Of a stretch of DNA of 64,000 nt, positions 1,454 through 36,595 are shown in pieces. The position numbers and the translations under genes were made by a program. Each line of letters opens with the position of its first letter. Position 1 is the stretch's first letter. The notes beneath the pieces were generated by a model. The model worked only from the letters and a program-made list of their open reading frames with translations, was not told the origin of the DNA and searched no databases. Source of the DNA: a bacterium (GTDB taxonomy: Bacteria; Electryoneota; B3-LCP); assembly GCA_026394195.1 (NCBI GenBank), contig JAPKYS010000023.1, forward strand, positions 468,621-532,620, in the 5' to 3' direction.

Positions 1454-3661
1454 TTAATTCTGCTGAAGCGACAGTGATATTCGCCACTCCCGCAGGGGTG
1501 TCGGAGCAGCATCGACAATGCGATAGGATTGATTGAATAGATTGGTTACGTCGAAACGGCAAGTCAATATCACCTGCTTTCGGTTCAGTGAGAAATCCTG
1601 CCATAGCCCGAAATCCCAAACCTGGTATGGTGATAAGGATTTGGTATTGGCTTCATTGGTAAACCTGCGGCTGACCCAGCGCGCCGTTGCCGTGAGATGA
1701 AGGTACCTGAGGTTCTGCTCCAAGGTAAAAACGGTGTTGTTTACCGGCCGGTAGGGCAATAATCTGCCGTCGGTGTTCGGCTCGTTTGACTGATTGATCG
1801 CATGCATCCAGCGGTGAGTCAGAAAGATATTGTGGGCCCAGTCGCCTTTTCCCAATTGATATTTCCAGATATACTCGATTCCAAAAATACGAGCTTTGCT
1901 TAAATTCAATGGTTTCCACCGATTGTCGAAATCAAGGCGCCAGTAGATCAGGTCCCAAATTTTCCGATCAAAATAGCTGACGCCGAATTCTGCAGACTTG
2001 TATCCCAGAGATGCTGCGATTTCACGATTCTCGGCTCTTTCAGGCTTCAAGTTGGGGTTCCCTTGCGCTTGCAGATCTTCCTGCCAGAATAATGAGTTAA
2101 AAGACGGCAGCCGAAAAGCGCCAGCAGATTCACCGCGCAGCGCAGCCCAGAAGATCTTTCCAGTTTTGACCTCAACCCCAAATCGAGGATAAATAAACAC
2201 TTGCCCGCCGCTGTAGAGATCCGTGCGCACACCGCCGAAGAGACCGGTGTTCACGGGTAGATTCAACTCTTGCAATGGGTTTCCCTGCGCCTGAAAATAA
2301 CCGAATTCATGCAATCGCTCAGCATAACCACCCAAAAGATCAGGTGACCAGAGTCGCTCCAGTCTCGCTCCCGTGCCGAAATTGAGATTCGTCCGTGATT
2401 CGCCCCCCCGACTCCAATCCAGAGAACCGCTGTAAACTTCACCTCGCAAGCTGGAGTTTTTATAAAGCAATGGATACTGTGAACCGTAATCAGTGATACT
2501 ATTCAGACGATAACTCTCACCATGAAGAGTCACTCGAGGCCGGTACCAATTCTCAGCGCCCTTTAGTGAGACATTAAATTCCTGATGATCAGTGGTGGTG
2601 GTGGATTCGTGGACAATTTCAGGCAGAGGCAGATAGTCGGGGTTCTGTCTGCTGGACATGTTTCTGCGATAACTTAGTTCAAGCACGCCCGGTGGATTCA
2701 ATTTAAGGGTCAGGTAATCACGTTGATATTCAGCGTTACTCCTGATCAAGATCTCACCAATGCTGCGCGTGAACAACTCCAAACCATCGTCGGGGACCAC
2801 TCGATACGGATATTTGCCGGTTCCTTCCTGATGCTCGTACATGCTCAGGAATCGCCAATTGGAAACATTCCTGCCGAGGAGAATGCTTCCTGTCTTGTCT
2901 CCATAGTCGGAGTATCCTGTCTTGACCGTCATCCGGTTTCGACCCGGATAAAGAGTAATAATATTTATCACACCTCCAATCGCTTGAGCACTCAGGCTTG
3001 ATGGAGCCTGGGGATAGACTTCGATTTGTTGGATTTCCGACAATGATACCTGTGACAGATCCGCCGTACCATCGCCTGACTCGTTGATGGGGCGCCCGTC
3101 GACTAACACTAAAACCTGGTCGCTGTTGCTGCCGCGCAGGGTTACGCTGCGCTTCCCACCCGGAGATCCATCCGAAGTAATGGTCGCCAGACCATTCTCT
3201 TCGAGGATTTTTCCCAAATCGCTGGTTCCGGTACGGGTGAGAACGTTTCGTCCCAATACGGTGCCGCCGGAAAGATACCCTGCTGAAGGCAGCGCCTTAG
3301 TTTCCACGGTCGTCTCGTCATCCATTTCCAGCACGATAGGAGACAATCGGAACTCCAGGGAAAGTGGGGTATCCGCAGCAAGCAAAACGACTCGACGGGT
3401 GATGGTTTTGTAGCCGATATGCGTTATTTTTAAATCGCAGCCACCCATCGGCAGATTATAAAAATAAAAACGCCCTTCTGCATCGGCTGCAACGCCGAAG
3501 GGCGAACCGTCGATCACGACGTCTGCGCCGGGAAGAGGCAACCCGGTTCGATCATCAAGCACCAGTCCGGAGAGATTTAACAGATTCTGGGCAGCGGCGC
3601 TACAGGCAAAGGCGAGTGCCACACCGATGAATACCAACAATGATTTCATGCGATACGTCAT
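1454..3661 (-). CDS. TonB-dependent outer membrane receptor with an N-terminal carboxypeptidase-regulatory-like domain
   Basis: Signal peptide followed by a CarbopepD-like beta-sandwich (GLVLDDRTGLPLPGADVVIDGS...), then plug-domain motifs (VTLRG, VLVDGRP, IEVYPQAPSSL...AIGGVINIIT) and a 22-strand barrel length. Confidence 0.9.
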   Translation of the reverse strand: MTYRMKSLLVFIGVALAFACSAAAQNLLNLSGLVLDDRTGLPLPGADVVIDGSPFGVAADAEGRFYFYNLPMGGCDLKITHIGYKTITRRVVLLAADTPLSLEFRLSPIVLEMDDETTVETKALPSAGYLSGGTVLGRNVLTRTGTSDLGKILEENGLATITSDGSPGGKRSVTLRGSNSDQVLVLVDGRPINESGDGTADLSQVSLSEIQQIEVYPQAPSSLSAQAIGGVINIITLYPGRNRMTVKTGYSDYGDKTGSILLGRNVSNWRFLSMYEHQEGTGKYPYRVVPDDGLELFTRSIGEILIRSNAEYQRDYLTLKLNPPGVLELSYRRNMSSRQNPDYLPLPEIVHESTTTTDHQEFNVSLKGAENWYRPRVTLHGESYRLNSITDYGSQYPLLYKNSSLRGEVYSGSLDWSRGGESRTNLNFGTGARLERLWSPDLLGGYAERLHEFGYFQAQGNPLQELNLPVNTGLFGGVRTDLYSGGQVFIYPRFGVEVKTGKIFWAALRGESAGAFRLPSFNSLFWQEDLQAQGNPNLKPERAENREIAASLGYKSAEFGVSYFDRKIWDLIYWRLDFDNRWKPLNLSKARIFGIEYIWKYQLGKGDWAHNIFLTHRWMHAINQSNEPNTDGRLLPYRPVNNTVFTLEQNLRYLHLTATARWVSRRFTNEANTKSLSPYQVWDFGLWQDFSLNRKQVILTCRFDVTNLFNQSYRIVDAAPTPLREWRISLSLQQN

Positions 3662-3680: not shown

Positions 3681-5540
3681 TCAATTGGTAAAGTTCCAGG
3701 ATACTCCCCATACTTCCTCCTTGTGCATCATGGTGAATCCTGGTAAGAGTTCATAGTTTCGATCCAGGATATTGTTGACACCCCAGAAAATCTGCACACC
3801 GTACAATCTGGCGCTGATCCTCGCCGATAAGACGAAATCGTTAGGATGCGCCTCCCATCCTCCGGGCACCGGCAGCCAACGTTGTCCCCAGAAATCCCCC
3901 CAGACCTTGAAGCGCAAATCGAGATGGTTTTGGAACGCAGGTTGTCGGTACTGCGTCCAAACGTGCCAGATCACTTCCGGGAAAATTCTCTGTTCTCCCG
4001 AATGAAGCGGCAGATATGAACCTGTCCCTCCGATTTCGATTTGATCTGAAGGTTTTAATCCGACCGAACCTAAAATCCCTTTGGAATCCAGCGAATTGGA
4101 ATTAATCGACCGGATGACATTGCCGTCGACCACCCAGGATATCTGATCCTCTACTCGATAGTGCGCAACGGCAAGATTGCAATCGACGAATCGAGACTTA
4201 ATTTCGCCGCCGAACGAAGCATTGGAATAAGTTTCATTTTTCAAGCTGTGCGTACCCTGTACGTCGAGGCTGGGGTATTGGAAGAAAACGGGGCTATAGG
4301 GCCAATAGTGATCGCTGTGTGTGTAGTCGGCGGACGCTTCCAATCGGGAAGGATTTTGCTGGTGTTGGGATGCCGCTAAAAATAACCTGATCCCTTGATA
4401 GACAGTGAAATCCGTTCGCACGCCCAGATGGCGAGCCGGTGTGAAATCGTCTGATAAATCCAACCCCAAAAAGGTCTGAACGTCCAGAATATCCGAAGCT
4501 CTCCAGACCAAAAAGTTGCTCAGACCGCCGAAGGACGTCGTAGACCAGTTTTGCGATTTCAGACGCCAGCGCGCCAGAGCAGCCTGCAACTTGAGTTCAC
4601 CATCAAACCTGGTTCGACCATATGGGCTTTGCGTGATGACACCCAGCTCTTCCCAGAGATCTTCGCCATTGCTGCCATAGGTATCAATCTGTTGCACGCC
4701 GTAGCCGCGCACAGCATGGGATCGCCAATGCAGCACAGCATCGGTCTCATAGCGTTCGCGCTTGTAGCTTGCAGTCTTGAAGGAAACCTGGGCATTCCTC
4801 CGGTTCTGAGTGACACCCCACCACCCCCAGACCCGGTTTGAATTTTCACTCATCCTGATGCTGTCATGCCAAACGACTTCAGCGCGAAGATTGAGTCCGT
4901 AACCTGCGCTGTGGTACTGTCTCCCGCCATACGTGGATACCTCTCCCCCACCATTCAAGCCAACAGCCGGCGTAATTTTCTCCGCCAGATCGAAATCAAT
5001 ATTTCCCAGTCCGTAGTACCCATCCCGTGCGCCAACATGACTCGATGGGGGTGAATTCTGCAACTCTTTTAATACCACGTCCATCTTCGCACCCGGCGCT
5101 TGAATCGCAAAAGGCTGAAAAATTATATTCGAGAGCGAATGAGGTGGTACCCACCCCAACTCAGGTGATCCTAAAAGAAAATCCCGCAACTCTCTACCCT
5201 TAAAATTGATGCTTAAAACGTCCGGCGACCAACCAAAAAACAAAGCGCGATCCGGTTGAGCATATCCTGCTTGATCCAAGGGGTAGAATCCGGGCATGAC
5301 TCTGATCAGATCGCCGAATTCCTCATAGTCGAAATCAGCGATTTCATCGACGTCAAGTCCAAGCCGAAAAGGTGTCGAATCATTTACGGAGTTGATCAGC
5401 GTACTTTGTGAGCTGTCGATCATGGTGGAATCAGGAATACTTGACTCTAAAATTTGTGAACTGGCTATAACAGCCTGGAAACACAAGAGCGCCAGACACC
5501 AGATTGTACAGTGATCGGGTGTGAATTTGGGATATTTCAT
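3681..5540 (-). CDS. Hypothetical secreted / outer-membrane-associated protein (619 aa)
   Basis: Signal peptide (MKYPKFTPDHCTIWCLALLCFQAVIASSQ) and beta-rich, Trp/Tyr/Gly-rich composition. It sits between the BtuM-like gene and the TonB-dependent receptor in an apparently co-transcribed unit. The start overlaps the upstream gene by 4 nt. Confidence 0.5.
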   Translation of the reverse strand: MKYPKFTPDHCTIWCLALLCFQAVIASSQILESSIPDSTMIDSSQSTLINSVNDSTPFRLGLDVDEIADFDYEEFGDLIRVMPGFYPLDQAGYAQPDRALFFGWSPDVLSINFKGRELRDFLLGSPELGWVPPHSLSNIIFQPFAIQAPGAKMDVVLKELQNSPPSSHVGARDGYYGLGNIDFDLAEKITPAVGLNGGGEVSTYGGRQYHSAGYGLNLRAEVVWHDSIRMSENSNRVWGWWGVTQNRRNAQVSFKTASYKRERYETDAVLHWRSHAVRGYGVQQIDTYGSNGEDLWEELGVITQSPYGRTRFDGELKLQAALARWRLKSQNWSTTSFGGLSNFLVWRASDILDVQTFLGLDLSDDFTPARHLGVRTDFTVYQGIRLFLAASQHQQNPSRLEASADYTHSDHYWPYSPVFFQYPSLDVQGTHSLKNETYSNASFGGEIKSRFVDCNLAVAHYRVEDQISWVVDGNVIRSINSNSLDSKGILGSVGLKPSDQIEIGGTGSYLPLHSGEQRIFPEVIWHVWTQYRQPAFQNHLDLRFKVWGDFWGQRWLPVPGGWEAHPNDFVLSARISARLYGVQIFWGVNNILDRNYELLPGFTMMHKEEVWGVSWNFTN

Positions 5541-6082
5541 GACACGCTCCAGCTTTTGATCCGATTCAGGAAAATGGGTATGATCATGGCAAAGATCATC
5601 GCGTTTGTTGTTATATGCATGGCTGCGAAGGGTATCCCCAGGATCAGAGTAAGCCGGGTCTGTTCCGCGCTGAATCCGGCTGAAATCGGGAAGGAAAGAT
5701 TGGTAAGGAGATCGAAAATGGTGGTCAGAAACGCTCCGAGCGCTCCTAAAAAGAAATGGTAATACCAGGATCCGGATGAGAAATATCTGATTGTGGTGAT
5801 TTTAGAGGCGATTAAACCTCCACAGAAGCCTGTCAGGGTCATGGAGAGCGCCTGTGCGATCAGAAGCGGCGGAGGCGGAAATCCCATCGGGTTGAAGGTC
5901 GAATAGATGGTCTCAGCGACACAGCCGATAATGGAGCCATACAACGGTCCCATGAGTATGCCTGAGAAGAAAATTCCGGCGGTGATCATCTCCAGATTGG
6001 GCACGGGCAGGAATAGATATCCGAGGACCACACAGGTCGCGGTCAACAGCGCGGCGCGAGTTATTTTGTGATGTCTTTTCAA
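5537..6082 (-). CDS. ECF-transporter S-component-like small membrane protein, putative cobalamin transporter (BtuM/CbrT-like)
   Basis: 181 aa with about 5-6 transmembrane helices and a conserved-looking Cys in the GCVAET motif. It lies directly downstream of a cobalamin riboswitch. The start is TTG at 6080-6082. Confidence 0.55.
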   Translation of the reverse strand: MKRHHKITRAALLTATCVVLGYLFLPVPNLEMITAGIFFSGILMGPLYGSIIGCVAETIYSTFNPMGFPPPPLLIAQALSMTLTGFCGGLIASKITTIRYFSSGSWYYHFFLGALGAFLTTIFDLLTNLSFPISAGFSAEQTRLTLILGIPFAAMHITTNAMIFAMIIPIFLNRIKSWSVS

Positions 6083-6087
6083 GATTT

Positions 6088-6285
6088 CTGCAAAAAGAAA
6101 AGGAGCCGAGCAGGCTCCTGAGAGTAGTTCTTCTTAGAACGAACAGAAGAACGTTCTTAGCGCCTTCCCGCGAAGGCTCTCGATTTCCCGTCAGGTGTCT
6201 GGCTCATGCTCCCGAGGAGCAATCACAGTTGCGGGGCAGCGTCGGAATTACACCGTCTTCCCTGATAGTTTCACGGGGAAGTAAT
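6088..6285 (-). promoter_or_regulatory. Cobalamin (B12) riboswitch with an intrinsic-terminator expression platform
   Basis: The minus strand reads cttccccgtgaaactatcaGGGAAgacGGTGtAAtTCCgacgctgCCCCGCAACTGTgattgc...GAGCCAGACACCTGAC (B12 box). It ends in the terminator hairpin ggagcctgctcggctcc plus ttttcttttt, immediately 5' of the 5537-6082 CDS. Confidence 0.8.
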
Positions 6286-6296
6286 TTTAACGAATT

Positions 6297-6644
6297 CTAA
6301 CGGTTGGTCTTCTCCTTGATTCTGGCGGCTTTGCCATGGAGATCACTCAGATAATACAGCTTGGCGCGGCGTACTTTTCCACGTCGTAGCGTCTCGATTT
6401 GGGCAATCCGAGGTGAATGCAACGGGAAGATGCGTTCCACGCCGACTCCGGCAGAAATCTTTCGAACTGTGAACATTTCGTTGATCCCAGCCCCACTCCG
6501 CTGCAAGACGGTCCCCTGGAAGACCTGGATGCGCTCCTTGTCCCCTTCGATGACGCGTACGTGAACTTTGATGGTATCCCCAGCTTTGAATTCAGGTAAG
6601 TCAGTCTTCAATTGCGGAGAAGTAGATAAATGTAGTTCCCGCAT
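6297..6644 (-). CDS. rplS: 50S ribosomal protein L19
   Basis: 115 aa with conserved L19 sequence ([22 protein letters not shown]...). It lies in the conserved rpsP-rimM-trmD-rplS cluster. Confidence 0.95.
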
Positions 6645-10338: not shown

Positions 10339-10839
10339 TTATGCCGCGCCATACCGTTTAAGAATCGTCTCGATCAGATTGGTGGTGGATTTCCCCGTCG
10401 TCAGCGCAATACGAACGACCTGACCTCCGTGTTTCCTGACGACGTCAGCGCCGACAATCTCGGCTTCCTGATAGTCGGCGCCTTTGACCAGAATATCCGG
10501 AAGCAGGGCTTCAATGAGTTGTTCGGGTGTATCCTGATCGAAAAAAGTGACGATATCCACCTGCCTGAGACAACTCAGCGCAAAAGCGCGGTCTTCCTCA
10601 ATGGCCAAGGGTCTTTTCTCACCCTTCAAACGCTTCACGGAAGCGTCGGTGTTTAAACCTACAATCAGCAAATCACCGAGGTTTCGAGCTTTAAGAAGAT
10701 AATCGAGATGGCCGCGATGCAATATATCGAAGACGCCGTTGGTAAATACGACGGACAAATCAGCTTGTTTCCATGACTCCCGCTGTTTTAATAAGAAGGA
10801 CCAATCAGTAATAATTTTAGCTGTTGCAACGTCCGCCAT
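10339..10839 (-). CDS. hldC: D-glycero-beta-D-manno-heptose 1-phosphate adenylyltransferase (RfaE domain II, stand-alone)
   Basis: Cytidylyltransferase-like fold with GVFDILHRGH motif. The ORF-track N-terminus (10840-10962) is a translated tRNA, so the start was moved to ATG at 10839 (MADVATAK...). Confidence 0.8.
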   Translation of the reverse strand: MADVATAKIITDWSFLLKQRESWKQADLSVVFTNGVFDILHRGHLDYLLKARNLGDLLIVGLNTDASVKRLKGEKRPLAIEEDRAFALSCLRQVDIVTFFDQDTPEQLIEALLPDILVKGADYQEAEIVGADVVRKHGGQVVRIALTTGKSTTNLIETILKRYGAA

Positions 10840-10885
10840 GGAATTTTTGGTCGTCCTGCTGGTATCTGACGATAATCGATTTAAG

Positions 10886-10959
10886 TGGGCGATATTGGAG
10901 TTGAACCAACGACCTCTGGTATGTGAGACCAGCGCTCTAACCAACTGAGCTAATCGCCC
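10886..10959 (-). tRNA. tRNA-Val (anticodon CAC)
   Basis: gggcgatTAGCTCAGTTGGTTAGAGCgctggtctCACataccagaggtcGTTGGTTCAACTCCAATatcgccca folds as a cloverleaf. It has a 7-bp acceptor stem, a GTTC T-loop and anticodon loop cuCACau. Confidence 0.8.
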
Positions 10960-10998
10960 CAATAGGTTACAAACGCCTGTGTGCAGCGTGATAGAAAA

Positions 10999-12000
10999 TT
11001 AATTGGTACTACAGGTCTGCAACTCTTCCCAGAGCTTATGCCTGTCTATGGGAACAACGCCCACCTCAGCGCAGACGATTGCTGCCGCAAAATTTGCCAT
11101 GGTCGCTGCTTCCATGACATCTGCTCCTGCCAGCGTCGTGACTACAAAGGCAGAGATGACTGTATCGCCTGCTCCGGAAACATCGTGAATCTTCCGGGCG
11201 CGCGTGGGGACATGCACTTGTTTTTCGCCGTGGTCAGAAAAAAGCGTCATCCCCTTGTCGCCGCGTGTGATCAGAACATACTTGCATTCGAGCCTTCGGA
11301 AGAGCTCTTTGGCTGCGGCGAGCAGATCTTCATCGGTGTTGATCTTGATACCCAACGCTTGTTCGGTTTCGCGCATGTTAGGCTTGAAAAGATCCACACC
11401 CCTGAAGTTGAAAAAATTATTAAACTTGGGGTCAACCGCCACAAATATTTTATGCTGATGGCAGATCGTGATGATTTCGCCGATCAATCTTGGTGTAAGG
11501 ACACCCTTGTTGTAATCTTCGAGAATAATTCCGTCTATTTCAGCGGTTCTTTCCCTGATAATCGCCAGAATACGATCTTCAACTGCTCTATGAATATCCT
11601 GTTTGGATTCAACGTCGGCGCGCACCACATGTTGATCGTGCGCGATGATGCGGGTTTTTATGGTGGTTGGTCGATCGATGTCGGTCACCACTCCGGAAAT
11701 ATCCATTCCAAACGCAGTAAATAGATCCCTCAGCAGTTTTCCTGGTAAATCATCTCCTACGACTCCAACCGGAAATGCGTTTGCCCCAATGGTCAGGATA
11801 TTATTGGCGACGTTGGCTGAACCTCCGAGTTTGACGGTTTCTGAGGTGACTTCAACCACGGGAACAGGCGCCTCTGGGGAGATTCTCTGAACATAGCCCC
11901 ACATGTAACGATCCAGCATCAGATCGCCCACCACCGCGATTTTTACACGGCTAAAATTATCAAAGAGCTCCTGCAAACGGGAAGAACTGAACTTTGTCAT
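10999..12000 (-). CDS. hldA: D-glycero-beta-D-manno-heptose 7-phosphate kinase (RfaE domain I, PfkB family, stand-alone)
   Basis: PfkB/ribokinase-like motifs (GGSANVANN, DVSGAGDT) and RfaE1-like N-terminus (KIAVVGDLMLDRY). Confidence 0.85.
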   Translation of the reverse strand: MTKFSSSRLQELFDNFSRVKIAVVGDLMLDRYMWGYVQRISPEAPVPVVEVTSETVKLGGSANVANNILTIGANAFPVGVVGDDLPGKLLRDLFTAFGMDISGVVTDIDRPTTIKTRIIAHDQHVVRADVESKQDIHRAVEDRILAIIRERTAEIDGIILEDYNKGVLTPRLIGEIITICHQHKIFVAVDPKFNNFFNFRGVDLFKPNMRETEQALGIKINTDEDLLAAAKELFRRLECKYVLITRGDKGMTLFSDHGEKQVHVPTRARKIHDVSGAGDTVISAFVVTTLAGADVMEAATMANFAAAIVCAEVGVVPIDRHKLWEELQTCSTN

Positions 12001-12163
12001 CAGCGATTATTTCACTTTCTTTGGCTCAATATAACAATAAATTCGTGTTAAAGCAACTGATTTCTTGCCGCTCCTTGGAGCAAATTTGATTCCAATTAGC
12101 CGATGTTTTCACAATATTCTCAATGGAGCTTCATGAATTGCGGAGGAAACTTACCGAAAACGT

Positions 12164-12191
12164 TAAAGTGTCTCTAAAAGGTTGCCGATAT
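12164..12191 (+). promoter_or_regulatory. Sigma-28 (FliA)-type promoter
   Basis: TAAAGTGT-N12-GCCGATAT matches the sigma-28 consensus TAAAGTTT-N11/12-GCCGATAA. It lies about 45 nt upstream of the MerR-like gene and the flagellin gene. Confidence 0.5.
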
Positions 12192-12238
12192 CAATAATGA
12201 GCGATTGTAATAAAAACCACCTGAAGGGGGGTGATACC

Positions 12239-12598
12239 GTGAGACCCAACAAAATGCCGGAAGACACATTGTATTCTATTGCTCAGGTGAATGCGATTAC
12301 GGGTGTCGCAAAACCTACCATTCGATTTTGGGAAAAAGAATTCCAGGAATTTCTGAGACCATTACGCACTCAAGGGAATCAACGTCGCTATAGTCGCGAC
12401 GATATTGACGTGATCGAGAAGATCAATGATCTAGTGCGTGTAGAGGGGTTCACCCTCGAAGGTGCTCGCAGAAAACTGGATAATGAATTGCAGCGTGAAC
12501 CGCACAACGCTGCGCAGGAAGTCGATCAGTTAGCCAAATTGGCTGATACGATGTCTGATTATCTCCTGAAAAAGCTATTGGACAGAACCACCGCCTGA
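12239..12598 (+). CDS. MerR-family HTH transcriptional regulator
   Basis: MerR HTH pattern (YSIAQVNAITGVAKPTIRFWEKEF...RRYSRDDIDVIEKINDLVRVEGFTLEGARRKL). The start is placed at GTG 12239 after a GGGGGG RBS. The ORF-track ATG at 12182 would lie upstream of the predicted transcription start. Confidence 0.65.
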   Translation: MRPNKMPEDTLYSIAQVNAITGVAKPTIRFWEKEFQEFLRPLRTQGNQRRYSRDDIDVIEKINDLVRVEGFTLEGARRKLDNELQREPHNAAQEVDQLAKLADTMSDYLLKKLLDRTTA

Positions 12599-12640
12599 TT
12601 CCGCAAACCAGGCGAACATCAGCTGTAAGGAAAAATCGAG

Positions 12641-13480
12641 ATGAGTACACGAATCAATCACAACATCCTATCTCTGACGGCACAGCGTAATATCTGGAGC
12701 ACGCAAAATGATCTGGATAAAGCCGTGAACCGCTTGTCGTCCGGGCTGCGTATCAACAACGCATGGGATGATCCCGCGGGGTTGGCGATCTCCGAGCGAT
12801 TCCGCGCTCAGATTGCATCAATGGATGAAGCTGAGCGCAATGCCAATGCCAACATTAACGTAATGCAGACTGCGGAAGGCGCTCTCTCCGTCATCGATGA
12901 GAAGCTGATTCGTATGCGCGCATTAGCGGTAGAGGCTTCCAACGGAGCTTTAACGGATACCGATCGTATCGCGCTGGACGTCGAATTCCAGCAACTTCGA
13001 TCGGAGATCACGCGAATCGCCAATGTTACCAATTACAACGGGTTGTACCTGCTTAATGGCGACTTCTCAACAGGGACGCCGGGAATTAAATTCCACATCG
13101 GCACTTATAATATCCAGAATCAAGACTACTACTACGTCAACTTCAATGCAATGACTGCATCTTCCCTGAGTCTCGAAGGTACGAACCTGTTGAACACAAC
13201 CAGCGCACAGCTATCGATTGGATCGATTGACGTCGCCATCGAATCCAAAGACACTGAGCGCACCAGAATTGGAGCCTACGTCAACCGGCTGCAAGGAACG
13301 ATTCAGCAACTTATGATTGCGCGGGAAAATTCCTCATCGTCAGAATCGCAAATCCGCGATGCCGACATCGCAGCGGAAATGTCCAATTTCATCAGGGCTC
13401 AGATCCTGATGCAGACAGGCATTTCCATGCTGGCTCAAGCCAACATGGTCCCGCAGATGGTATCGAAGCTCGTCGGTTAG
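12641..13480 (+). CDS. Flagellin (short form, N and C conserved domains, no hypervariable insert)
   Basis: N-terminus MSTRINHNILSL...LSSGLRINNAWDDPAGLAISERFRAQI and C-terminus RIGAYVNRLQGTIQQL...DADIAAEMSNFIRAQILMQTGISMLAQAN. AGGAA RBS upstream. Confidence 0.9.
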   Translation: MSTRINHNILSLTAQRNIWSTQNDLDKAVNRLSSGLRINNAWDDPAGLAISERFRAQIASMDEAERNANANINVMQTAEGALSVIDEKLIRMRALAVEASNGALTDTDRIALDVEFQQLRSEITRIANVTNYNGLYLLNGDFSTGTPGIKFHIGTYNIQNQDYYYVNFNAMTASSLSLEGTNLLNTTSAQLSIGSIDVAIESKDTERTRIGAYVNRLQGTIQQLMIARENSSSSESQIRDADIAAEMSNFIRAQILMQTGISMLAQANMVPQMVSKLVG

Positions 13481-13496
13481 TAATCCACGCGAGCTT

Positions 13497-13532
13497 TATT
13501 AAAAAAGTCCGGCGTCCGCCGGACTTTTTGTT
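13497..13532. terminator. Bidirectional rho-independent terminator
   Basis: aaaaaaGTCCGGCGtcCGCCGGACtttttgtttt lies between the convergent flagellin and ferredoxin genes. Confidence 0.65.
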
Positions 13533-13543
13533 TTCCCGCGAAT

Positions 13544-13735
13544 TTATTCCAGTGGGGGAATACAATCAACCGGGCAATACTCGACACAACGCGGGGAGTC
13601 GTAGTGACCCTTGCAATCGACACAGACGTTCGTATCGATGATGTAGATATTCTCGCCTTCTGAAATCGCGCCGACCGGGCATTCCGGTTCGCACGCCCCG
13701 CAGTTGATGCATTCCTCGGTGATCAGACGTGGCAT
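13544..13735 (-). CDS. 4Fe-4S ferredoxin
   Basis: Two CxxCxxCxxxCP clusters (CINCGACEPECP; CVDCKGHYDSPRCVEYCP). 63 aa. Confidence 0.85.
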   Translation of the reverse strand: MPRLITEECINCGACEPECPVGAISEGENIYIIDTNVCVDCKGHYDSPRCVEYCPVDCIPPLE

Positions 13736-13793
13736 TTTACCTCCTGATGTATGGTCAGAGATCTTTCCTCAGCTCGCATTGGCTGTAATGGAG

Positions 13794-14351
13794 TCATACC
13801 TCCATGATCTCTTCTTCCTTTTGACTTAGAACTTTATCGACATGTTCTATGTATTGATCTGTCAGTTGTTGATTTTGGGTTTGGAGCTTCTTCGATTCAT
13901 CTTCTGAGATTTTGCCGTCCTTCTCCTCACGCTTCAGATGCTCATTGACGTCTCGGCGAACATTACGGACCGCAACACGAGCCTCTTCGGCATATCTTTT
14001 AACCAGCTTTACCAAGTCCTTGCGCCGCTCTTCAGTCAGGATGGGGATCGCCAGGCGAATAAAAGTTCCATCGCTCATGGGCGTAAGCCCCAATTCGCTC
14101 TTCTGAATCTCCTTTTCGATCTTGCCGATCAAAGATTTTTCCCACGGCTGGATTATGATCATCCGTGGTTCGGGCGTCGACAGGCTGGCAACCTGGTTCA
14201 AGGGCACCTGGGAACCGTAGTACTCCACACGAATCCCGTCCAGCAGGGCAGTTGAGGCTTTTCCAGTACGGATTCTTAACATTTCCTGCCGCAGGGTTTC
14301 TACGGTCTTCTTCATCCGCCGTTCTGCTTCAGCCAAAGTGGGATGTTCCAT
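13794..14351 (-). CDS. frr: Ribosome recycling factor
   Basis: Full-length RRF similarity. 185 aa. Confidence 0.95.
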   Translation of the reverse strand: MEHPTLAEAERRMKKTVETLRQEMLRIRTGKASTALLDGIRVEYYGSQVPLNQVASLSTPEPRMIIIQPWEKSLIGKIEKEIQKSELGLTPMSDGTFIRLAIPILTEERRKDLVKLVKRYAEEARVAVRNVRRDVNEHLKREEKDGKISEDESKKLQTQNQQLTDQYIEHVDKVLSQKEEEIMEV

Positions 14352-26091: not shown

Positions 26092-26859
26092 TCAGATGAT
26101 CCCACGCTCGCTGTGCTCGATAAAGTCGATGATATGTTCAATATCCGGGGTAATTTCCATCTCTTCCCGGATGCGCGCGATGCCCTGTGATACATTCAAA
26201 TCGCTCAAATAGATCAATCTATAGGCATGTTTGATCTGGCTAATCCTTTCGGCGGTAAATCCACGCCGCTTCAGTCCTACCGTATTCAATCCCTCAAATT
26301 TTAACGGTTCATTGCCCGACATGATGAAGGGTGGAATATCTTTGACCACACGGAATCCTCCACCGACGAAGGCGTGACAACCAATTCGCACGAACTGATG
26401 CACCGGAACCAACCCTCCGACGGTCACCCAATCTTCCAACTTGCAATGACCGGCAACGTTCGCAGAGTTCACTAAAATGACCTTGTTCCCAAAGATACAG
26501 TCGTGAGCAACATGGGTGTAAGCCATCAATAAACAGTCGGATCCGATGATGGTCTTACCTGTCGCATCGGACCCACGGTGGATCGTGGCAAATTCACGGA
26601 TGATGGTGTTATCTCCGATGATGGCGACTGTCGATCCACCCTTAAATTTCAGATCTTGTGGTTCTTCGCTGATCACGGCTCCCTTAAAAACCCGCACATT
26701 CTTCCCCAGGCGGGCGCCGGTAGCCAGCAAGACATGGGGACCAATTTCACAACCGGAATCGATGACAACGTCGGATTCGACGACTACGAAAGGCGCAATT
26801 TTTACGTCTTCTGCAATCTGAGCCCCGGGATCAACTACGGCAGTTGGATGAATATTCAC
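26092..26859 (-). CDS. lpxA: Acyl-ACP--UDP-N-acetylglucosamine O-acyltransferase
   Basis: Left-handed beta-helix hexapeptide repeats and the LpxA C-terminal helical domain. Confidence 0.95.
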   Translation of the reverse strand: MNIHPTAVVDPGAQIAEDVKIAPFVVVESDVVIDSGCEIGPHVLLATGARLGKNVRVFKGAVISEEPQDLKFKGGSTVAIIGDNTIIREFATIHRGSDATGKTIIGSDCLLMAYTHVAHDCIFGNKVILVNSANVAGHCKLEDWVTVGGLVPVHQFVRIGCHAFVGGGFRVVKDIPPFIMSGNEPLKFEGLNTVGLKRRGFTAERISQIKHAYRLIYLSDLNVSQGIARIREEMEITPDIEHIIDFIEHSERGII

Positions 26860-28259
26860 ACTTCCTCCTTGTCGCGCACGACCGCTGACATAATCGCTTC
26901 CGCGACGACGACGTCATTCACATAGGCTTTACCCTTCATACGGCAGATTCCGCGGCGGAAAAACTCAAGTTCAATCTTAAGAAATAATTGATCCCCAGGA
27001 ATCACGGGTTTGCGGAAGCGGACTTCATCCATACCTGTGAAAAAGACCAGCTTCGTCTCCGGATGTTCCAGGGAGTTCAATAACAACAATCCACCAGCTT
27101 GTCCGAGCGCTTCGATGATCAAGACTCCAGGCATGATGGGATATCCCGGGAAATGACCCTGAAAGAAGTGCTCGTTATAAGTGACGCATTTAACTCCGGT
27201 TACTCTTTCGCCCGGCGAAAGATCAATAATTTTATCCACCAGCAGGAAAGGATAGCGGTGCGGGAGTATGCGTGTAATGGCAGCGGCATCGAAGATAAAA
27301 TCTTTGGAACTCTTCCCCTGATAGGTTCGGATGATTTTGTTCTTCTCATATTCTTTTCGTATCATCCGTACCAGTTCGACGTGAGCAGCATGACCGGCTC
27401 GAGCAGCTAGGATGTGTCCTTTGATCGGGAAACCCAACAAGGCCAGATCTCCGATCAAATCGAGCAATTTATGGCGCACCGGCTCATTGTAGTAGCGCAG
27501 TTTTCTGCCGTCCAGAATTCCGTTGTCGCCGCGGATAACGTCTGTATTGAGATTGAACATCTTTTTCAACCGGTCAAATTCTGAATCATCTATTTCACGG
27601 TCCAGAATGACGACCGAATTTTCCAGATTGCCACCCTTGATCAATCCCTGTTCCTTCAATGACTCAACCTCAGATAGAAAGCAGAAGGTGCGCGATGAAG
27701 CGAATTCCGAAACAAATTCCTCCTGCAGATCATAGAGTGAGGTATATTGAGTCCCGAGCGCCGGATTGCGGTAATCGATCATATAGGTGATGCGAAAGGT
27801 CGGCGCGGGCACGACGACCAGATCGATCCCTTTCTCCTCATTGTGATAAATAATGGTTTTCTCGATTTCCAAATACTCTTTGGGCGCAGTCTGCTCCTCG
27901 ATACCAATTGTATTAATTGCCTCAACAAATGGCATCGCAGAACCGTCACCGACCGGCGGTTCACCTGCGGTAAGATCAATGAGGACATTGTCAATCTCAA
28001 GACCGCTAAGAGCCGCCATGACATGTTCCACCGTGTGGATCCTGATATCTTTAATGCCCAGAATCGTCCCCCGCGAAATATCTACGACGTGATCAATCGT
28101 CGCTGGAATGATGGGTGAGTTGGGGATATCCTGCCGTCGGAATCTGATTCCATGTCCTTCCGGCGCGGGATGAAAGGTCAATGAGCATGGTTCGCCGGTG
28201 TGCAAGCCAATCCCGGAATAGGATATCGAACCCTTGATCGTACGTTGCGTTTTAATCAT
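26856..28259 (-). CDS. lpxC-fabZ: Bifunctional UDP-3-O-acyl-GlcNAc deacetylase / 3-hydroxyacyl-ACP dehydratase (LpxC-FabZ fusion)
   Basis: N-terminal LpxC (SGIGLHTGE, HTVEHVMAAL) and C-terminal FabZ hotdog (HFPGYPIMPGVLIIEALGQ). Confidence 0.95.
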   Translation of the reverse strand: MIKTQRTIKGSISYSGIGLHTGEPCSLTFHPAPEGHGIRFRRQDIPNSPIIPATIDHVVDISRGTILGIKDIRIHTVEHVMAALSGLEIDNVLIDLTAGEPPVGDGSAMPFVEAINTIGIEEQTAPKEYLEIEKTIIYHNEEKGIDLVVVPAPTFRITYMIDYRNPALGTQYTSLYDLQEEFVSEFASSRTFCFLSEVESLKEQGLIKGGNLENSVVILDREIDDSEFDRLKKMFNLNTDVIRGDNGILDGRKLRYYNEPVRHKLLDLIGDLALLGFPIKGHILAARAGHAAHVELVRMIRKEYEKNKIIRTYQGKSSKDFIFDAAAITRILPHRYPFLLVDKIIDLSPGERVTGVKCVTYNEHFFQGHFPGYPIMPGVLIIEALGQAGGLLLLNSLEHPETKLVFFTGMDEVRFRKPVIPGDQLFLKIELEFFRRGICRMKGKAYVNDVVVAEAIMSAVVRDKEEV

Positions 28260-32380: not shown

Positions 32381-35300
32381 TTAAAACAGGATCGAGTAAC
32401 GCAAAGTCGCCTGCTTATCTTCTATTTTCTCGAGGCTATCATACTGGTAGCTCAGGTTTATTACCAAGCGTTTGGAAATCGGTCTAATGCGATATTCGAT
32501 GCTCCAGCGATGCAGAAAGCCAAAATGGCGTTCGCTGGCAGCATTGAGACCGGTTTCCCAAGTGCCTGTATAGACCAGGAAGACGTCATCACTTAAGTAT
32601 TTGCCCACTGAAAGCTGCGATTGGCGTAGAAAATAGGCGCCCCAATCGACCTGACTTTCAGGGCCAGGATCCGTCCCAAGAATCTGGTTTTCAAAGAGGT
32701 GTTGCGCAATGGTCGGCTGAAGACTGACCAGATCGAGCTTAAGAAATGTCTCCAATTCCCGTTCAATTGGTCGGATCCAGCGGCGCAGCATGGCGTTGGA
32801 AACGATCTGTCCGCTGATTGAAGTCACTTTACTGGTGATCTGACTGGGAGAATAACCTAACATCGCCAAAATCTGCTCTTGTGAAGATCCGGCGTCATCT
32901 TCTATCACCAGGATAAAATCTCCCCAGCGCCCCCGTAACACTTTCTCTTTAGTTACTGGATCAACAACGTACAAAGTAATGTAAATGTTCCTTGTTTGAC
33001 CCAGCGAATCGCGGTAGACCGTCTCACCACGACCCTCAACCCAGGGCAGAAGATCGTGCTCGTCAAACTCCACAGTGACCTGATCCACTTTAAATTTAAA
33101 ATCAAGGTAATCGATGCTGCCTCTGGTCGAGACCAAATTCCCGAGAAAACGAAAAGTACCTTGATCAGCACACCCCAGAATACTGAGTGAACTCTCGCCG
33201 GCATTGATGGTCAGATTTACGTCCACCGGAGTCAATAATCCGGACATTTCTGCCAGGAGTGGCGTCCCCTCCAATCCACCGATTTCACGCATAAAACGAT
33301 TATCTCTCTCAGCCTGGACCGTAACGTCCCATCGACCTGCATTTAGAACCCTTAGGACGCCGGCAGCAAATTTGGAGATAGGTCCTTTGGAGGGGATGAA
33401 GGGAAATGTGAGAGTTGTGCCTGAGGCGCTGATGATTCCACGAAACAGAGGGCTGCTGGTGGGGCCCGATACTGAAAATTTCTCACCGGCAGATTTGCCT
33501 TGAAATTTAAAATAACCCTTTGAACCGGTGACCATCAACGATGGAATCTTGGCAAAAATTCCACGTCCTTCCGTACTCATGGTCACCACACCGATATCGA
33601 CGTCCACTGAAGGAAAATACAGGTGCTGAAAGGTGGTGGAATCAACCACGTCGGGGAAATAATTGCTGATATTGAATTTTTGACGGTCAATTGACCCGCT
33701 GAGTTCATCGATGACGACCTTGTGACCTTCAAGATGCATCTGTGCCTGAATGTCTTGGATCTCATCAACCACGTCCTTAAAGCGCATCATCCCATCGCGC
33801 AGTGAAAGGGTGGCGTCGCTGACATGGACGGAACCGTCGACCTGATCGAGAACAAAGTTAAATTTCCCCTGTCCTGTCGAGACTGGAATGGCTCCCGGCT
33901 CGATCAAGTTGGGAATTTTCAAAATATTTCCTTCGATTGCAAAAGATAGATGCAGCGGAGTTTTCCGGAAGGGAAGCTGTCCCTGCCCTTTGATAGCCAG
34001 ATCTGAAGATTGAATCAGACTGAATTCAGTCAATTTGGGAATATATGCAGTGGAGGCGTCCATGCGGATAGAGGCGATAAAGCTCTGGAAAGGCATATGA
34101 TACAGCGTCCCTGAAGGGATTTGAGCTGTAAGGCTCATTTCCGGCTGTGCGATAGAACCCTTCAGTTGCGCAGACAATTGGAGCGCGCCTGATAGACACA
34201 CCGGGTTGATTCCAAATAGTTTTAAAATGTCTGATGAGTTGGCATACTGCGATCCCAGATTGAAGTCTAAGCTGCTTCCATTGATTTTACCCGAACCCAT
34301 GATTTTAAAGAGGTTCAATACGTCTTTGCCGATATTGCATTCCGTCAAATTAAAAGCCTGATCCTTTAATTCGGCAGAGATAACCGCCCAAAAACCACTC
34401 TGTTGCATAAAATATCCACGGGAAGCATACAAGTTAACTGATGCCATGGGATTTTTTATATCGCCATAGATTTCGAACCTGCCATCCAGTTGTCCCCCGA
34501 CCTTGCCGCTCCAAGTCGGAGCAATAATCCCGACCAACTTGCTGACGTCCCAATTAGTGACGGCAATTTCTGATAAGGCAATCTCGTTTTTACTGAAATC
34601 GACTGATCCATGTGCAGTGATAGCGTCATCGAAACTGAAATCATTTAGAGTAAGAATGTGGTTGAGCAAATTGGCGTCAATGCGACCACCCATTACGGCG
34701 CCGGTATCCTGTTGGAATGAGAACGCATTTGCAATGATCAGTCCCCGGGTTGAATCGGTTACCAGTGAGCCATCGAATTTGAATTTCGACGATGTTGCCC
34801 GATTAACCGCCTCCAATTTGTATGTTGCGTGCTCCAAAGTTCCTTTTGCCACTCCGGAGAATCTGATCGCCCTTAAGTCTTCCCAACCATACCACCGATA
34901 AAATTGCTCCAGAATCGGAATCGGTGCGTTGAAAGCGAAATCGTAATTTGGCTTTTTAGGAAAATCCGAAATGTTCAGCCACACCAGTGACGTGTCTCCC
35001 GGTAAACTGATCTCTGCCGACAGTGCTGTACTGTCCGGGAGATAAGACACATTGATTGCAACCGGTACAGACGTGGAATCCGAAGATTGCCAAACACCTC
35101 CCAATCGGTACTCGTGTGATCCACCACTTACCTGGGCACTCAAATGTCCGGGGATTGAGTTATCCAGACCAGGGATCGCTCCATCCCATTCGGCGGAAAT
35201 TGTATAGCGTGGACCCGTGCTGTCCGCCCAGAAATCACCGGAACATTTCAAATTACCTTTTGCAGGGAGCACCATATTCACAAAGTTAGGAAGTTCTCCC

Positions 35301-36595
35301 ACCCAATCGACTTTCAACGCGTATTTCGATTTCGTGCTGTCAGCCCAGACGTCTCCGGTGCATTTTAGACTACCTTCCGGTGTAATTGCCGACAAATCTT
35401 TAAGTTGAAAATGACGATCGGAATATAAACCCCCGAAGGTGATCGATGAAAAAATCCCCAGATCGGTTTGAAAATGGTCGAGACTACCCGCAACCTCTAT
35501 ACGAGGCGATTGGGCATCACCGGTCACTCTACCATCCAAACCAAAATTGCCTTGGGGCAGGACTGCCGTCGAATCAAGGAAAAGTGAGGTGATCTTCTGG
35601 GAGTCTGTAGAGTGACCGCTGATGGTAAAATCCAATAGTGGAGTTCTGAGGTCAGGTATTTGGCCGGAAAAATTCCAATTGACAGATAGCCCCTCAGCCT
35701 TGGTCGGCGGTATTGTCAGTTTCCAATTGTCAACAAATAATGACAAGGTATCGCATCGAAATAGATCAACTTTAGAATTGTCCAGACTTAAATCTAAAAA
35801 TTGAATGACACCTTCAAGTCCGTTTTGGCTTCCTTTGCTCCAGAGACGTAAGTCAAGGTTCATGCTGTCAAGATTGACGCTCATGGAGTTTTGAATCCCG
35901 AACTCTTCCCAGGGAATGGTAACGTCGCCGATCCGGGTCTGCAGAGTCACTTCAAGGGTTTGGGTTTGCGCATCCAGTGACAACAAAATGACTCCGGCAG
36001 GGATGCCGGCTGATGCGGGGCCGCTCTGCAATTTACCCGCTAGTGTCTTTGGATGATCTGAATGCAATTGCCCTTTAAGGTTTCTCAGTGACCACCAGGG
36101 TTTACCTTGCGGGGTATCAAAGCGAATAACACCTGCATCGAGGTTCAACTTATGCAGCCAGAGCTCATCGGGTAATTTATTGATAGCTTCCCAACCCAGG
36201 GCGGTCGTGGTATCACTTTTTGCAGACAGGGAATCAGTTGCAGATAAAATCAGGGTGGCTTCGGGATGATGCAGCGAGACAGAGCTTATGGATTTGAGGA
36301 TGTTTAATCGTGAGGAAAGCAGTGTCACGAGGTTGAAGTCGATGGTGGCTGCTTCGATTTTAACAGTAAAAGTCTGGTTTTCGTCCTGATACTGGAAACC
36401 ATAAAGGTGCAGAGCTAAAAATCCGAGACTGGCTCCTTTTAACTCGATACGCCCCTTGATGGATTTTTCAAGTTCGTCCGCGACCAGTTGACGAATATTC
36501 TTATTGACGTTGAGGAATGGCCATGCCAGCACTCCGATCAGGAGCAAGACAAGGAGAGTTAGAAGTAAACTGAGCAGAATCGAGCGCAATGTCAT
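32381..36595 (-). CDS. tamB: Translocation and assembly module protein TamB-like (AsmA-family, C-terminal DUF490)
   Basis: N-terminal single TM anchor, 1404 aa beta-rich body, C-terminal DUF490-like region. Adjacent to bamA. Confidence 0.8.
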   Translation of the reverse strand: MTLRSILLSLLLTLLVLLLIGVLAWPFLNVNKNIRQLVADELEKSIKGRIELKGASLGFLALHLYGFQYQDENQTFTVKIEAATIDFNLVTLLSSRLNILKSISSVSLHHPEATLILSATDSLSAKSDTTTALGWEAINKLPDELWLHKLNLDAGVIRFDTPQGKPWWSLRNLKGQLHSDHPKTLAGKLQSGPASAGIPAGVILLSLDAQTQTLEVTLQTRIGDVTIPWEEFGIQNSMSVNLDSMNLDLRLWSKGSQNGLEGVIQFLDLSLDNSKVDLFRCDTLSLFVDNWKLTIPPTKAEGLSVNWNFSGQIPDLRTPLLDFTISGHSTDSQKITSLFLDSTAVLPQGNFGLDGRVTGDAQSPRIEVAGSLDHFQTDLGIFSSITFGGLYSDRHFQLKDLSAITPEGSLKCTGDVWADSTKSKYALKVDWVGELPNFVNMVLPAKGNLKCSGDFWADSTGPRYTISAEWDGAIPGLDNSIPGHLSAQVSGGSHEYRLGGVWQSSDSTSVPVAINVSYLPDSTALSAEISLPGDTSLVWLNISDFPKKPNYDFAFNAPIPILEQFYRWYGWEDLRAIRFSGVAKGTLEHATYKLEAVNRATSSKFKFDGSLVTDSTRGLIIANAFSFQQDTGAVMGGRIDANLLNHILTLNDFSFDDAITAHGSVDFSKNEIALSEIAVTNWDVSKLVGIIAPTWSGKVGGQLDGRFEIYGDIKNPMASVNLYASRGYFMQQSGFWAVISAELKDQAFNLTECNIGKDVLNLFKIMGSGKINGSSLDFNLGSQYANSSDILKLFGINPVCLSGALQLSAQLKGSIAQPEMSLTAQIPSGTLYHMPFQSFIASIRMDASTAYIPKLTEFSLIQSSDLAIKGQGQLPFRKTPLHLSFAIEGNILKIPNLIEPGAIPVSTGQGKFNFVLDQVDGSVHVSDATLSLRDGMMRFKDVVDEIQDIQAQMHLEGHKVVIDELSGSIDRQKFNISNYFPDVVDSTTFQHLYFPSVDVDIGVVTMSTEGRGIFAKIPSLMVTGSKGYFKFQGKSAGEKFSVSGPTSSPLFRGIISASGTTLTFPFIPSKGPISKFAAGVLRVLNAGRWDVTVQAERDNRFMREIGGLEGTPLLAEMSGLLTPVDVNLTINAGESSLSILGCADQGTFRFLGNLVSTRGSIDYLDFKFKVDQVTVEFDEHDLLPWVEGRGETVYRDSLGQTRNIYITLYVVDPVTKEKVLRGRWGDFILVIEDDAGSSQEQILAMLGYSPSQITSKVTSISGQIVSNAMLRRWIRPIERELETFLKLDLVSLQPTIAQHLFENQILGTDPGPESQVDWGAYFLRQSQLSVGKYLSDDVFLVYTGTWETGLNAASERHFGFLHRWSIEYRIRPISKRLVINLSYQYDSLEKIEDKQATLRYSILF

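Follow-up and report, generated by a model that had tools for sequence, protein, structure and literature searches.

A MerR-type gene conserved next to flagellin behind a predicted sigma-28 promoter in bacteria of the FCB group

Introduction

In a 64-kb stretch of contig JAPKYS010000023.1, referred to below as the window, a gene for a small MerR-like protein is directly followed by a gene for a short flagellin, and a predicted promoter for the flagellar sigma factor sigma-28 (FliA/SigD) lies in front of the pair. The nearest functional analogue would be the fliW-csrA-hag region of Bacillus subtilis, for which Mukherjee et al. in 2011 and Yakhnin et al. in 2007 are said to have described SigD-dependent flagellin homeostasis. 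The likeness would lie in a small regulator gene that is placed directly upstream of flagellin and driven by the flagellar sigma factor, with an output tied to assembly. However, CsrA of Bacillus is an RNA-binding translational repressor and FliW its protein antagonist, whereas the unit in the window encodes a MerR-type DNA-binding fold and includes neither csrA nor fliW. FliZ, encoded by fliAZ of Escherichia coli and Salmonella, offers a possible parallel as a DNA-binding regulator that is made as part of the flagellar cascade, so that its level reports flagellar gene activity. It differs in its integrase-like fold, in its co-transcription with fliA instead of flagellin and in its occurrence in Enterobacteria, and it has no sequence relationship to the MerR-like protein.

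MerR family proteins dimerize through an antiparallel coiled coil of the long helix that follows the DNA-binding domain, and their operator is a palindrome inside a promoter with an overlong spacer of 19-20 bp. CarH/CarA/LitR and TnrA/GlnR are likewise small proteins that are controlled outside the classic metal/drug pocket. The tails of TnrA and GlnR bind glutamine synthetase, and the heat-shock repressor HspR, which is short, sensor-less and partner-dependent, uses DnaK as co-repressor; both are precedents for control by a partner protein. NmlR (5d8c, 5d90), a MerR regulator lacking a sensor domain, is of similar length, consists of a DNA-binding domain and a long helix, and signals through cysteines. 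The MerR-like protein of the window differs from each of these. It has no B12-binding domain as in CarH/LitR and no glutamine-synthetase-binding tail motif as in TnrA/GlnR, and its genomic context is entirely different from theirs. Unlike HspR, it has no dnaK/clpB context, and no HAIR-type palindrome was found for it. It shares just 17-20% identity with NmlR and has no cysteine.

To our knowledge, the control of flagellar genes is understood in just a few model phyla, with hardly any information for the candidate phyla of the FCB group (LCP-89, Zixibacteria, Calditrichota, KSB1). Full-text searching of the literature found neither a MerR-flagellin operon nor a sigma-28-controlled MerR regulator, the apparent matches being the surname 'Merrell' or unrelated MerR genes. 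This bears out the sequence-only reading from which our analysis started, which had called the arrangement undescribed. The parts are all of known kinds; their combination and its breadth are new. The observations presented here make it probable, in our view, that the pair is a late-class flagellar operon and that the MerR-like product is a dimeric DNA-binding regulator dedicated to the flagellum.

Results and Discussion

Organization of the merR-flagellin unit

The sigma-28 consensus applied here consists of TAAA(GTTT) as the -35 box and GCCGATAA as the -10 box, about 11-12 nucleotides (nt) apart (TAAA-N15/16-GCCGATAA); transcription from such promoters depends on FliA and begins about 7-8 nt beyond the -10 box. 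On the plus strand of the window, TAAAGTGT-N12-GCCGATAT at 12164-12191 fits this consensus. The -35 box TAAAGTGT (12164-12171) aligns with the TAAAGTT box of 77 distinct promoter instances in related loci, and the -10 box GCCGATAT (12184-12191) follows after a spacer of 12 nt. Both boxes together span 28 nt, which is the commonest spacing class among the relatives. Between the end of the -10 box and the start codon of the merR-like gene lie 47 nt. The alignment on the -10 box predicts a leader of about 40 nt in this region (12192-12238, plus strand), containing the block caataaTGAGcg and the Shine-Dalgarno sequence AAGGGGGGTGA.

The merR-like gene (12239-12598, plus strand) encodes 119 amino acids (MCX6640084.1) within the open reading frame (ORF) 12182-12598 and was assigned by its match to Pfam MerR_1, by alignment and by an AlphaFold model. 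Its real start is most likely GTG at 12239, because this codon is preceded at 5-6 nt by AAGGGGGGTGA (12224-12234) and aligns with the ATG starts of the homologues, whose N-termini read M(K/R)xxK(L/M)PEExLYSI. Behind the merR stop codon (12596-12598), the intercistronic gap of 42 nt (12599-12640, plus strand) contains the flagellin Shine-Dalgarno sequence AAGGA (12627-12631) as its sole feature, with neither a promoter nor a terminator motif. The flagellin gene (12641-13480, plus strand, 279 amino acids) was identified by Flagellin_N (PF00669, 144.5 bits, E=2.8e-42) and Flagellin_C (PF00700, 75.6 bits, E=3.8e-21), both above their gathering scores, and by the NCBIfam flagellin models. The protein comprises the N- and C-terminal helical domains with just about 50 amino acids separating them and is therefore called short; it is 57-82% identical to the flagellins encoded 3' of merR in other loci.

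The unit ends at a bidirectional intrinsic terminator (13502-13534, both strands) composed of an A-run, a G+C-rich hairpin and a T-run. The hairpin (13502-13529), followed by TTTTTGTTTT, folds with -23.6 kcal/mol (z = -4.3; 0 of 200 shuffles fold as well) and is common to the flagellin gene and the convergent ferredoxin gene at 13544-13735 on the minus strand. A simple terminator scanner did not list this hairpin, which was confirmed by RNA folding. Between merR and flagellin, the same scanner reported no plus-strand hairpin of the terminator type. The near-consensus FliA promoter, the flagellin after 42 nt with its own ribosome binding site and the strong bidirectional terminator had all been proposed in the sequence-only reading, and all were recovered.

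Linkage of merR and flagellin in related genomes

For the MerR-like protein of the window 241 close homologues were found, and a scan of one genome per species yielded 79 loci. The carriers, uncultivated bacteria of several phyla, belong to LCP-89, which is a member of the FCB group, Zixibacteria, Calditrichota, KSB1, 'Electryonea', 'Tariuqbacter' and others. Orthologue copies were counted by tblastn at 50% identity or more in non-duplicate loci of different species (n=68). A flagellin adjoins the merR orthologue in 59 of these 68 copies, so that the conservation of the pair, which the sequence-only reading had suggested checking, was found. In 43 copies flagellin follows merR within 130 nt; the order flagellin, merR, a gap of 186-363 nt and a second flagellin occurs in 15, flagellin followed by merR in one, and merR without an adjacent flagellin in nine. 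The gaps between merR and its linked flagellin measure 41-110 nt among related loci.

At least four unrelated sets of genes were found to flank the linked genes. The pair lies between a pfkB kinase gene and ferredoxin (Fer4)-frr in the window, LCP-89 and Zixibacteria, and elsewhere between genes for an aldehyde dehydrogenase (Aldedh) and a metallophosphatase (Metallophos), a PCMT methyltransferase and an asparagine-synthase-like protein (AsnB), or a transporter (SDF) and a response regulator. Since these flanks are wholly different between the groups, selection evidently keeps merR and flagellin together, and inherited synteny does not suffice as an explanation. In other lineages, the merR-like gene sits after a flagellin, near fliA, or alone as a paralogue. 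Judged from these sequences, sigma-28 control is the common denominator of the MerR-like family, and adjacency to flagellin its commonest arrangement.

In L085 (11303-13684), and equivalently in L025, L028 and similar loci, two ORFs were noted between the merR-linked and the second flagellin. One encodes 137 amino acids without a Pfam match, the other an asparagine-synthase-like protein of 653 amino acids that may be a flagellin-modification enzyme.

Conservation of the sigma-28 promoter

A loose pattern (TAAA-N14-17-CCGATA) matched once in the window against 0.45 expected matches, and 35 of 100 shuffles gave at least one match. The single match in the window is therefore not significant by itself, and the significance of the promoter comes from the conservation of its boxes across related loci. 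Of the 84 loci fetched, 58 contain the strict pattern TAAAGT-N12-15-CCGATA, with one match for each merR or flagellin unit. These matches are located a short way upstream of the unit and on its coding strand, the sole exception being a second match in L080. By our own estimate, about 0.005 such matches would be expected by chance per 10-kb locus.

Alignment of the upstream regions on the -10 box of the 77 distinct promoter instances gave the consensus AAaA.tTAAAGTT...(G/T)CCGATAa. TAAAGTT and (G/T)CCGATA are near-invariant across the relatives, the spacer and the flanks having diverged freely. Upstream of the -35 box and in the spacer, no conservation was seen in this alignment apart from an A-rich stretch. 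The boxes span 28 nt in 57 of the 77 instances and 27 nt, the E. coli-type spacing, in the other 20. To judge from these alignments, the near-consensus FliA-type promoter is under purifying selection across phyla.

This conservation bears on the notion that the promoter match arose by chance, or that the MerR fold is the excisionase-like protein of a mobile element, without any link to FliA. The expectation of 0.45 loose matches per window would agree with it, as would a weak match to Pfam HTH_17 (E=0.0012) and the orientation of the pair, which lies by itself on the plus strand amid a long array of housekeeping genes on the minus strand. However, about 50 species have kept the boxes in diverged surroundings. 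The HTH_17 match lies below the family threshold and no integrase or other mobile-element gene occurs among the Pfam matches of the larger ORFs of the window, for which reasons the excisionase assignment was rejected. The insertion site is the same in LCP-89 and Zixibacteria, so the placement is old. We regard this explanation as extremely improbable; conservation and placement, as read from the sequences, effectively refute it already.

A second conserved block follows the -10 box near the predicted transcription start (caataaTGAGcg, 12192-12205 in the window) and reads aAtAgTGaRA(ggAa) in the relatives. It is common to the promoters of merR, of stand-alone flagellins and of the merR paralogues (77 promoters). 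The block may represent a preferred initial transcribed sequence, a protein site in the 5' leader or a non-palindromic DNA site; with regard to the leader site, a CsrA-type GGA is present in some clades. A degenerate sigma-28-like match (CAAA-N14-GCCGATGT, 12076-12105, plus strand) precedes the main promoter by some 90 nt; it is probably due to chance and is not conserved in L002 or L003. Scanning of 11500-14000 for sigma-70-like promoters gave no sites.

Position of the promoter within the unit

The position of the sigma-28 motif was compared between the gene arrangements. When merR is the first gene or stands alone, the motif lies upstream of it in 49 of 52 cases, against 2 of 16 when merR lies 3' of a flagellin. 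A flagellin directly after merR has the motif inside merR or the gap in 1 of 43 cases, and a flagellin not preceded by merR carries the strict motif within 260 nt upstream in 27 of 36. In seven of the nine flagellins of this kind without a strict match, the motif deviates by a single base (TTAAGTT, GCCGATGA); for the remaining pair (L045, L048), a strict motif lies farther upstream. In unlinked flagellins the motif lies about 100 nt upstream. By this distribution, the sigma-28 motif stands at the beginning of each unit.

The two genes of the window have the layout of a bicistronic operon, lying on the same strand with a gap of 42 nt, no internal terminator-like site and a conserved order. Co-transcription of merR and flagellin is well supported, because the promoter heads the unit, no promoter precedes the linked flagellin and no plus-strand terminator lies between the genes. 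The proposal of the sequence-only reading that the pair is one unit is thus strengthened, all the more as merR-less flagellins have promoters of their own.

Two independent genes would be the alternative, with a flagellin promoter hidden in merR and the sigma-28 promoter serving merR only or neither gene, the pairing being inherited synteny. The sequence GCTGATAC at the 3' end of merR is loosely -10-like, and in the loci of the order flagellin-merR-gap-flagellin the downstream flagellin has a separate long upstream region. However, GCTGATAC encodes a conserved Ala-Asp-Thr with varying third-codon positions and has no TAAA partner at the distance of a -35 box, and it was rejected as an embedded flagellin promoter. 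The 1 of 43 linked flagellins with a motif inside merR or the gap stands against the motif upstream of unlinked ones, the region is devoid of sigma-70-like sites, the gaps are short and the adjacency recurs in the unrelated contexts described above. Two independent genes are thus very unlikely.

FliA in the relatives

The sequence-only reading would have failed if the genome lacked fliA or a flagellar apparatus; in relatives, FliA-type genes were encountered and flagellar gene sets are on record. The sequence of E. coli FliA was used as query and matched sigma factors in L047 and L035 at 43% identity; the L047 protein contains sigma regions 2, 3 and 4. In both loci, which have no flagellin beside merR, the FliA-type gene lies about 1.9 kb upstream of the merR orthologue, and the L047 orthologue has a sigma-28 promoter of its own. 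With the L047 FliA as query, FliA/WhiG proteins were found on putatively the same contigs as L022, L025, L036, L043, L046, L062 and P0110, so that FliA/WhiG genes and merR-flagellin loci putatively share contigs in at least seven genomes of relatives. Moreover, near-complete sets of flagellar and chemotaxis genes have been reported for KSB1 clades (PMC9012183).

Three ORFs without a Pfam match (287, 86 and 119 amino acids) were noted between the FliA-type gene and merR in L047 (2292-5318) and L035 (1873-5333), and the 86-residue product could be an anti-sigma factor. The merR orthologue is followed there by response-regulator and PAS-kinase genes.

Practically all ORFs of the window with 150 or more amino acids were scanned against Pfam, and no other flagellar gene was found, in agreement with the sequence-only reading. 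The sole sigma factor among them is of the extracytoplasmic function type (53445-54053). Dependence of the operon on FliA in the organism of the window would follow from the promoter and from the relatives.

Architecture of the MerR-like protein

The protein matches MerR_1 (PF13411) with 68.6 bits (cut-off 21.6, E=4.9e-19) and MerR (PF00376) with 33.3 bits (cut-off 28.2), which identifies it as a protein with a MerR family DNA-binding domain. Residues 11-80, approximately, form a winged helix-turn-helix, which a linker of variable sequence (about 85-100) connects to the conserved helix at the C-terminus, LAKLADTMSDYLLKKLL (the LADTMSDYLLKKL helix). In the family alignment, the helix-turn-helix and wing are near-invariant (YSIxQVNAITGxxKPTIRFWEKEF...RTxGNQRRY), followed by about 15 variable residues and the C-terminal helix LA(D/E)TMSDYLLKKL. 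The AlphaFold model, which is a monomer (mean predicted local distance difference test score, pLDDT, 82), is confident for the winged helix-turn-helix 11-80 and contains a helix 73-118 with a pLDDT of 60-66 across 81-100; its C-terminal part shows an a/d heptad pattern (L-L-M-Y-L). Selection on the protein is evident, since the C-terminal motif is kept among orthologues while third-codon positions vary.

No effector-binding (metal/drug/redox) region was recognized, as the protein ends at residue 119, has no cysteine and no conserved histidine, and gave no further domain match. In the absence of a sensor domain, its own abundance is the most likely signal. Sequence and fold searches of the Protein Data Bank returned as nearest matches, for residues 7-85 approximately, the DNA-binding domains of CarA/CarH/LitR and TnrA/GlnR (5c8e, 2jml, 3whp, 4r22, 4r4e; E 7.7e-11 to 1e-6, root-mean-square deviation about 2 Å, 27-37% identity), of which the closest, DNA-bound CarH, TnrA and GlnR, share 30-36% identity with it. 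Assignment to the described sub-families was rejected on score: the best NCBIfam match, HspR (NF047375, positions 2-88 of 92), reached 49.3 bits against a cut-off of 105, TnrA/GlnR (NF053740) 29.3 against 140, and CarH (NF052513) 45.8 against 400, the B12 domain being absent; CueR, SoxR and BldC were likewise rejected on their NCBIfam scores. The family is compact, with just seven representatives at 50% identity and E<=1e-30 among 1.84 billion proteins.

A paralogous group with 38-47% identity was noted in L069-L078 (e.g. L075:4911-5411 and L069:4977-5366), where the genes stand alone among unrelated genes. These paralogues have the same helix-turn-helix and the C-terminal helix IEKLxEMVTDLLLxKLF. 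They co-occur in genomes with a flagellin-merR-gap-flagellin locus, and several have their own sigma-28 promoter.

Proposed function of the operon

In the proposed late-class flagellar operon, RNA polymerase with FliA (sigma-28) would start at the promoter 12164-12191 and transcribe, in the manner of a class III operon, a bicistronic mRNA of the merR-like gene and flagellin ending at the hairpin 13502-13534. The first product would be a minimal MerR protein, comprising the winged helix-turn-helix and the heptad-patterned C-terminal helix without a ligand-sensing domain. Its abundance would track FliA activity and hence the progress of flagellum assembly. From the fold we infer that it may bind DNA as a dimer and act as a flagellum-dedicated transcription factor, which would feed the late-stage status back on flagellar or motility genes; early genes might be damped in this way, or the expression of flagellin paralogues adjusted. 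The target genes and the sign of this regulation are presumptive.

The sequences suggest that late flagellar promoters in lineages of the FCB group are of the canonical sigma-28 type, the preferred spacing exceeding that of the E. coli consensus by one base. Within the late regulon they place a compact, highly conserved MerR-type family that is physically tied to flagellin, and its member described here is a testable candidate for linking filament synthesis to gene expression in these lineages. The range of the MerR family would be extended by a sensor-less form whose input apparently is its own sigma-factor-dependent synthesis.

Several observations weigh against this proposal. Co-transcription is deduced from the layout. 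In the flagellin-merR-gap-flagellin loci, merR and the second flagellin are separated by 186-363 nt that include a conserved block without a sigma-28 motif, and a simple operon does not account for the regulation there. The leading position in a presumably very abundant mRNA is unusual for a low-copy transcription factor and hints at a stoichiometric, protein-binding role. Finally, all gapped palindromes with half-sites of 4-6 nt and gaps of 0-12 were searched in the non-coding DNA around the unit in 64 loci, and no widely shared one was found, the best occurring in 12. Autoregulation or direct control of the adjacent flagellin is thus without sequence support, there being no conserved palindrome. 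A MerR-type operator was not recognized locally, neither as a palindrome in the 64 loci nor as a sigma-70-like promoter in 11500-14000.

The missing operator and the high, roughly stoichiometric synthesis implied by the first cistron of the flagellin mRNA would agree with a regulator controlled by a partner. Its DNA-binding activity would be set by a protein that docks on the C-terminal helix and reports the export status of flagellin, and unexported flagellin, the chaperone FliS, FliW, FlgM and FliA are conceivable partners, each choice being a tentative one. In favor of such control, the closest solved relatives TnrA, GlnR and CarH use C-terminal parts instead of the classic MerR sensor, HspR is the best NCBIfam match, and in the protein itself the DNA-binding domain is joined by a variable, low-confidence linker to a nearly invariant helix. 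On the other hand, all sub-family scores are far under their cut-offs, and in the model the heptad C-terminal helix is continuous with the helix 73-118, so that it may just be the MerR dimerization coiled coil. We consider control by a partner unlikely overall. Quite unlikely, in our estimation, is a more specific form of it, a new FCB-group family of flagellar checkpoint regulators spanning phyla, which would be made only when FliA is active and would be bound at their invariant C-terminal helix by some component of the filament export pathway. Capture by unexported flagellin, FliS or FlgM would then switch DNA binding according to flagellin exit, and the system would be the transcriptional counterpart, on a MerR scaffold, of the CsrA-FliW partner switch.

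It is also doubtful that the MerR-like factor controls non-flagellar genes (adhesion, biofilm, metabolism) and, like FliZ, couples lifestyle to the motile state. No candidate binding site lies near the flagellin loci, orthologues and paralogues away from flagellins still keep the sigma-28 promoter, and the signalling genes behind merR in L047 fit such an output branch. However, the flagellin linkage in most of the orthologue copies across contexts argues for a flagellin-related role.

Conserved elements between merR and flagellin

The order flagellin-merR-gap-flagellin was observed in L026, L030, L031, L033, L039, L041, L045, L048, L052, L053, L055, L058, L059, L063 and L086. The gap of these 15 loci, taken here as 240-363 nt (e.g. 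L026:5340-5647), contains strongly conserved blocks, GGTGGG, N8-10, CC.., (G/C)TCTTTGACAAGC, GCTCA and CACCCAC, the last immediately before the Shine-Dalgarno sequence. A hairpin with covarying stems and a CCCCGTC loop lies 3' of merR. Consensus folding of the whole gap gave just 8 pairs and -4.7 kcal/mol, the alignment being too gappy. The blocks may belong to a leader RNA with a defined fold, or to a promoter of a type other than sigma-28 together with an operator. Scanning of the window and five of these loci against Rfam gave no match to a known RNA family in the operon or its vicinity.

In the clade of L025, L028, L032, L043, L044 and L046, a perfect hairpin, CCCGCGATTAGCGGG, spans the merR stop codon, with TAG in its loop, just 5' of the flagellin Shine-Dalgarno sequence (e.g. 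L025, about 5300-5347). It may set the relative expression of the merR and flagellin cistrons.

Other features of the window

Elsewhere in the window, the Pfam scans showed housekeeping genes, nearly all on the minus strand, including trmD, rimM, rpsP, ffh, frr, pyrH, tsf, rpsB and lpx genes as well as bamA, uppS, argS, pan genes, glmS and guaA. A cobalamin riboswitch (RF00174, 47.1 bits, 6173-6307, minus strand) lies upstream of the gene for the S component of an energy-coupling factor transporter (5537-6082) and of an ORF of 619 amino acids without a Pfam match (3681-5540). The gene for a TonB-dependent receptor (1454-3661) is next to them, and together these genes probably serve the uptake of B12. 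A tRNA gene (71.9 bits, 10886-10959, minus strand) lies inside the 5' part of the mechanically called ORF 10339-10962; since it occupies this part, the cytidylyltransferase-like gene starts further downstream, the homologues having 163-165 amino acids. On the minus strand, an ORF of 1404 amino acids (32381-36595) between bamA and the gene for an FAD-binding protein matched no Pfam family at E<=1e-5. Finally, a fused LpxC-FabZ-type protein of 467 amino acids, with an LpxC domain and a FabA-like dehydratase domain, is encoded at 26856-28259 on the minus strand within the array lpxA-lpxC/fabZ-lpxD-ompH-bamA.

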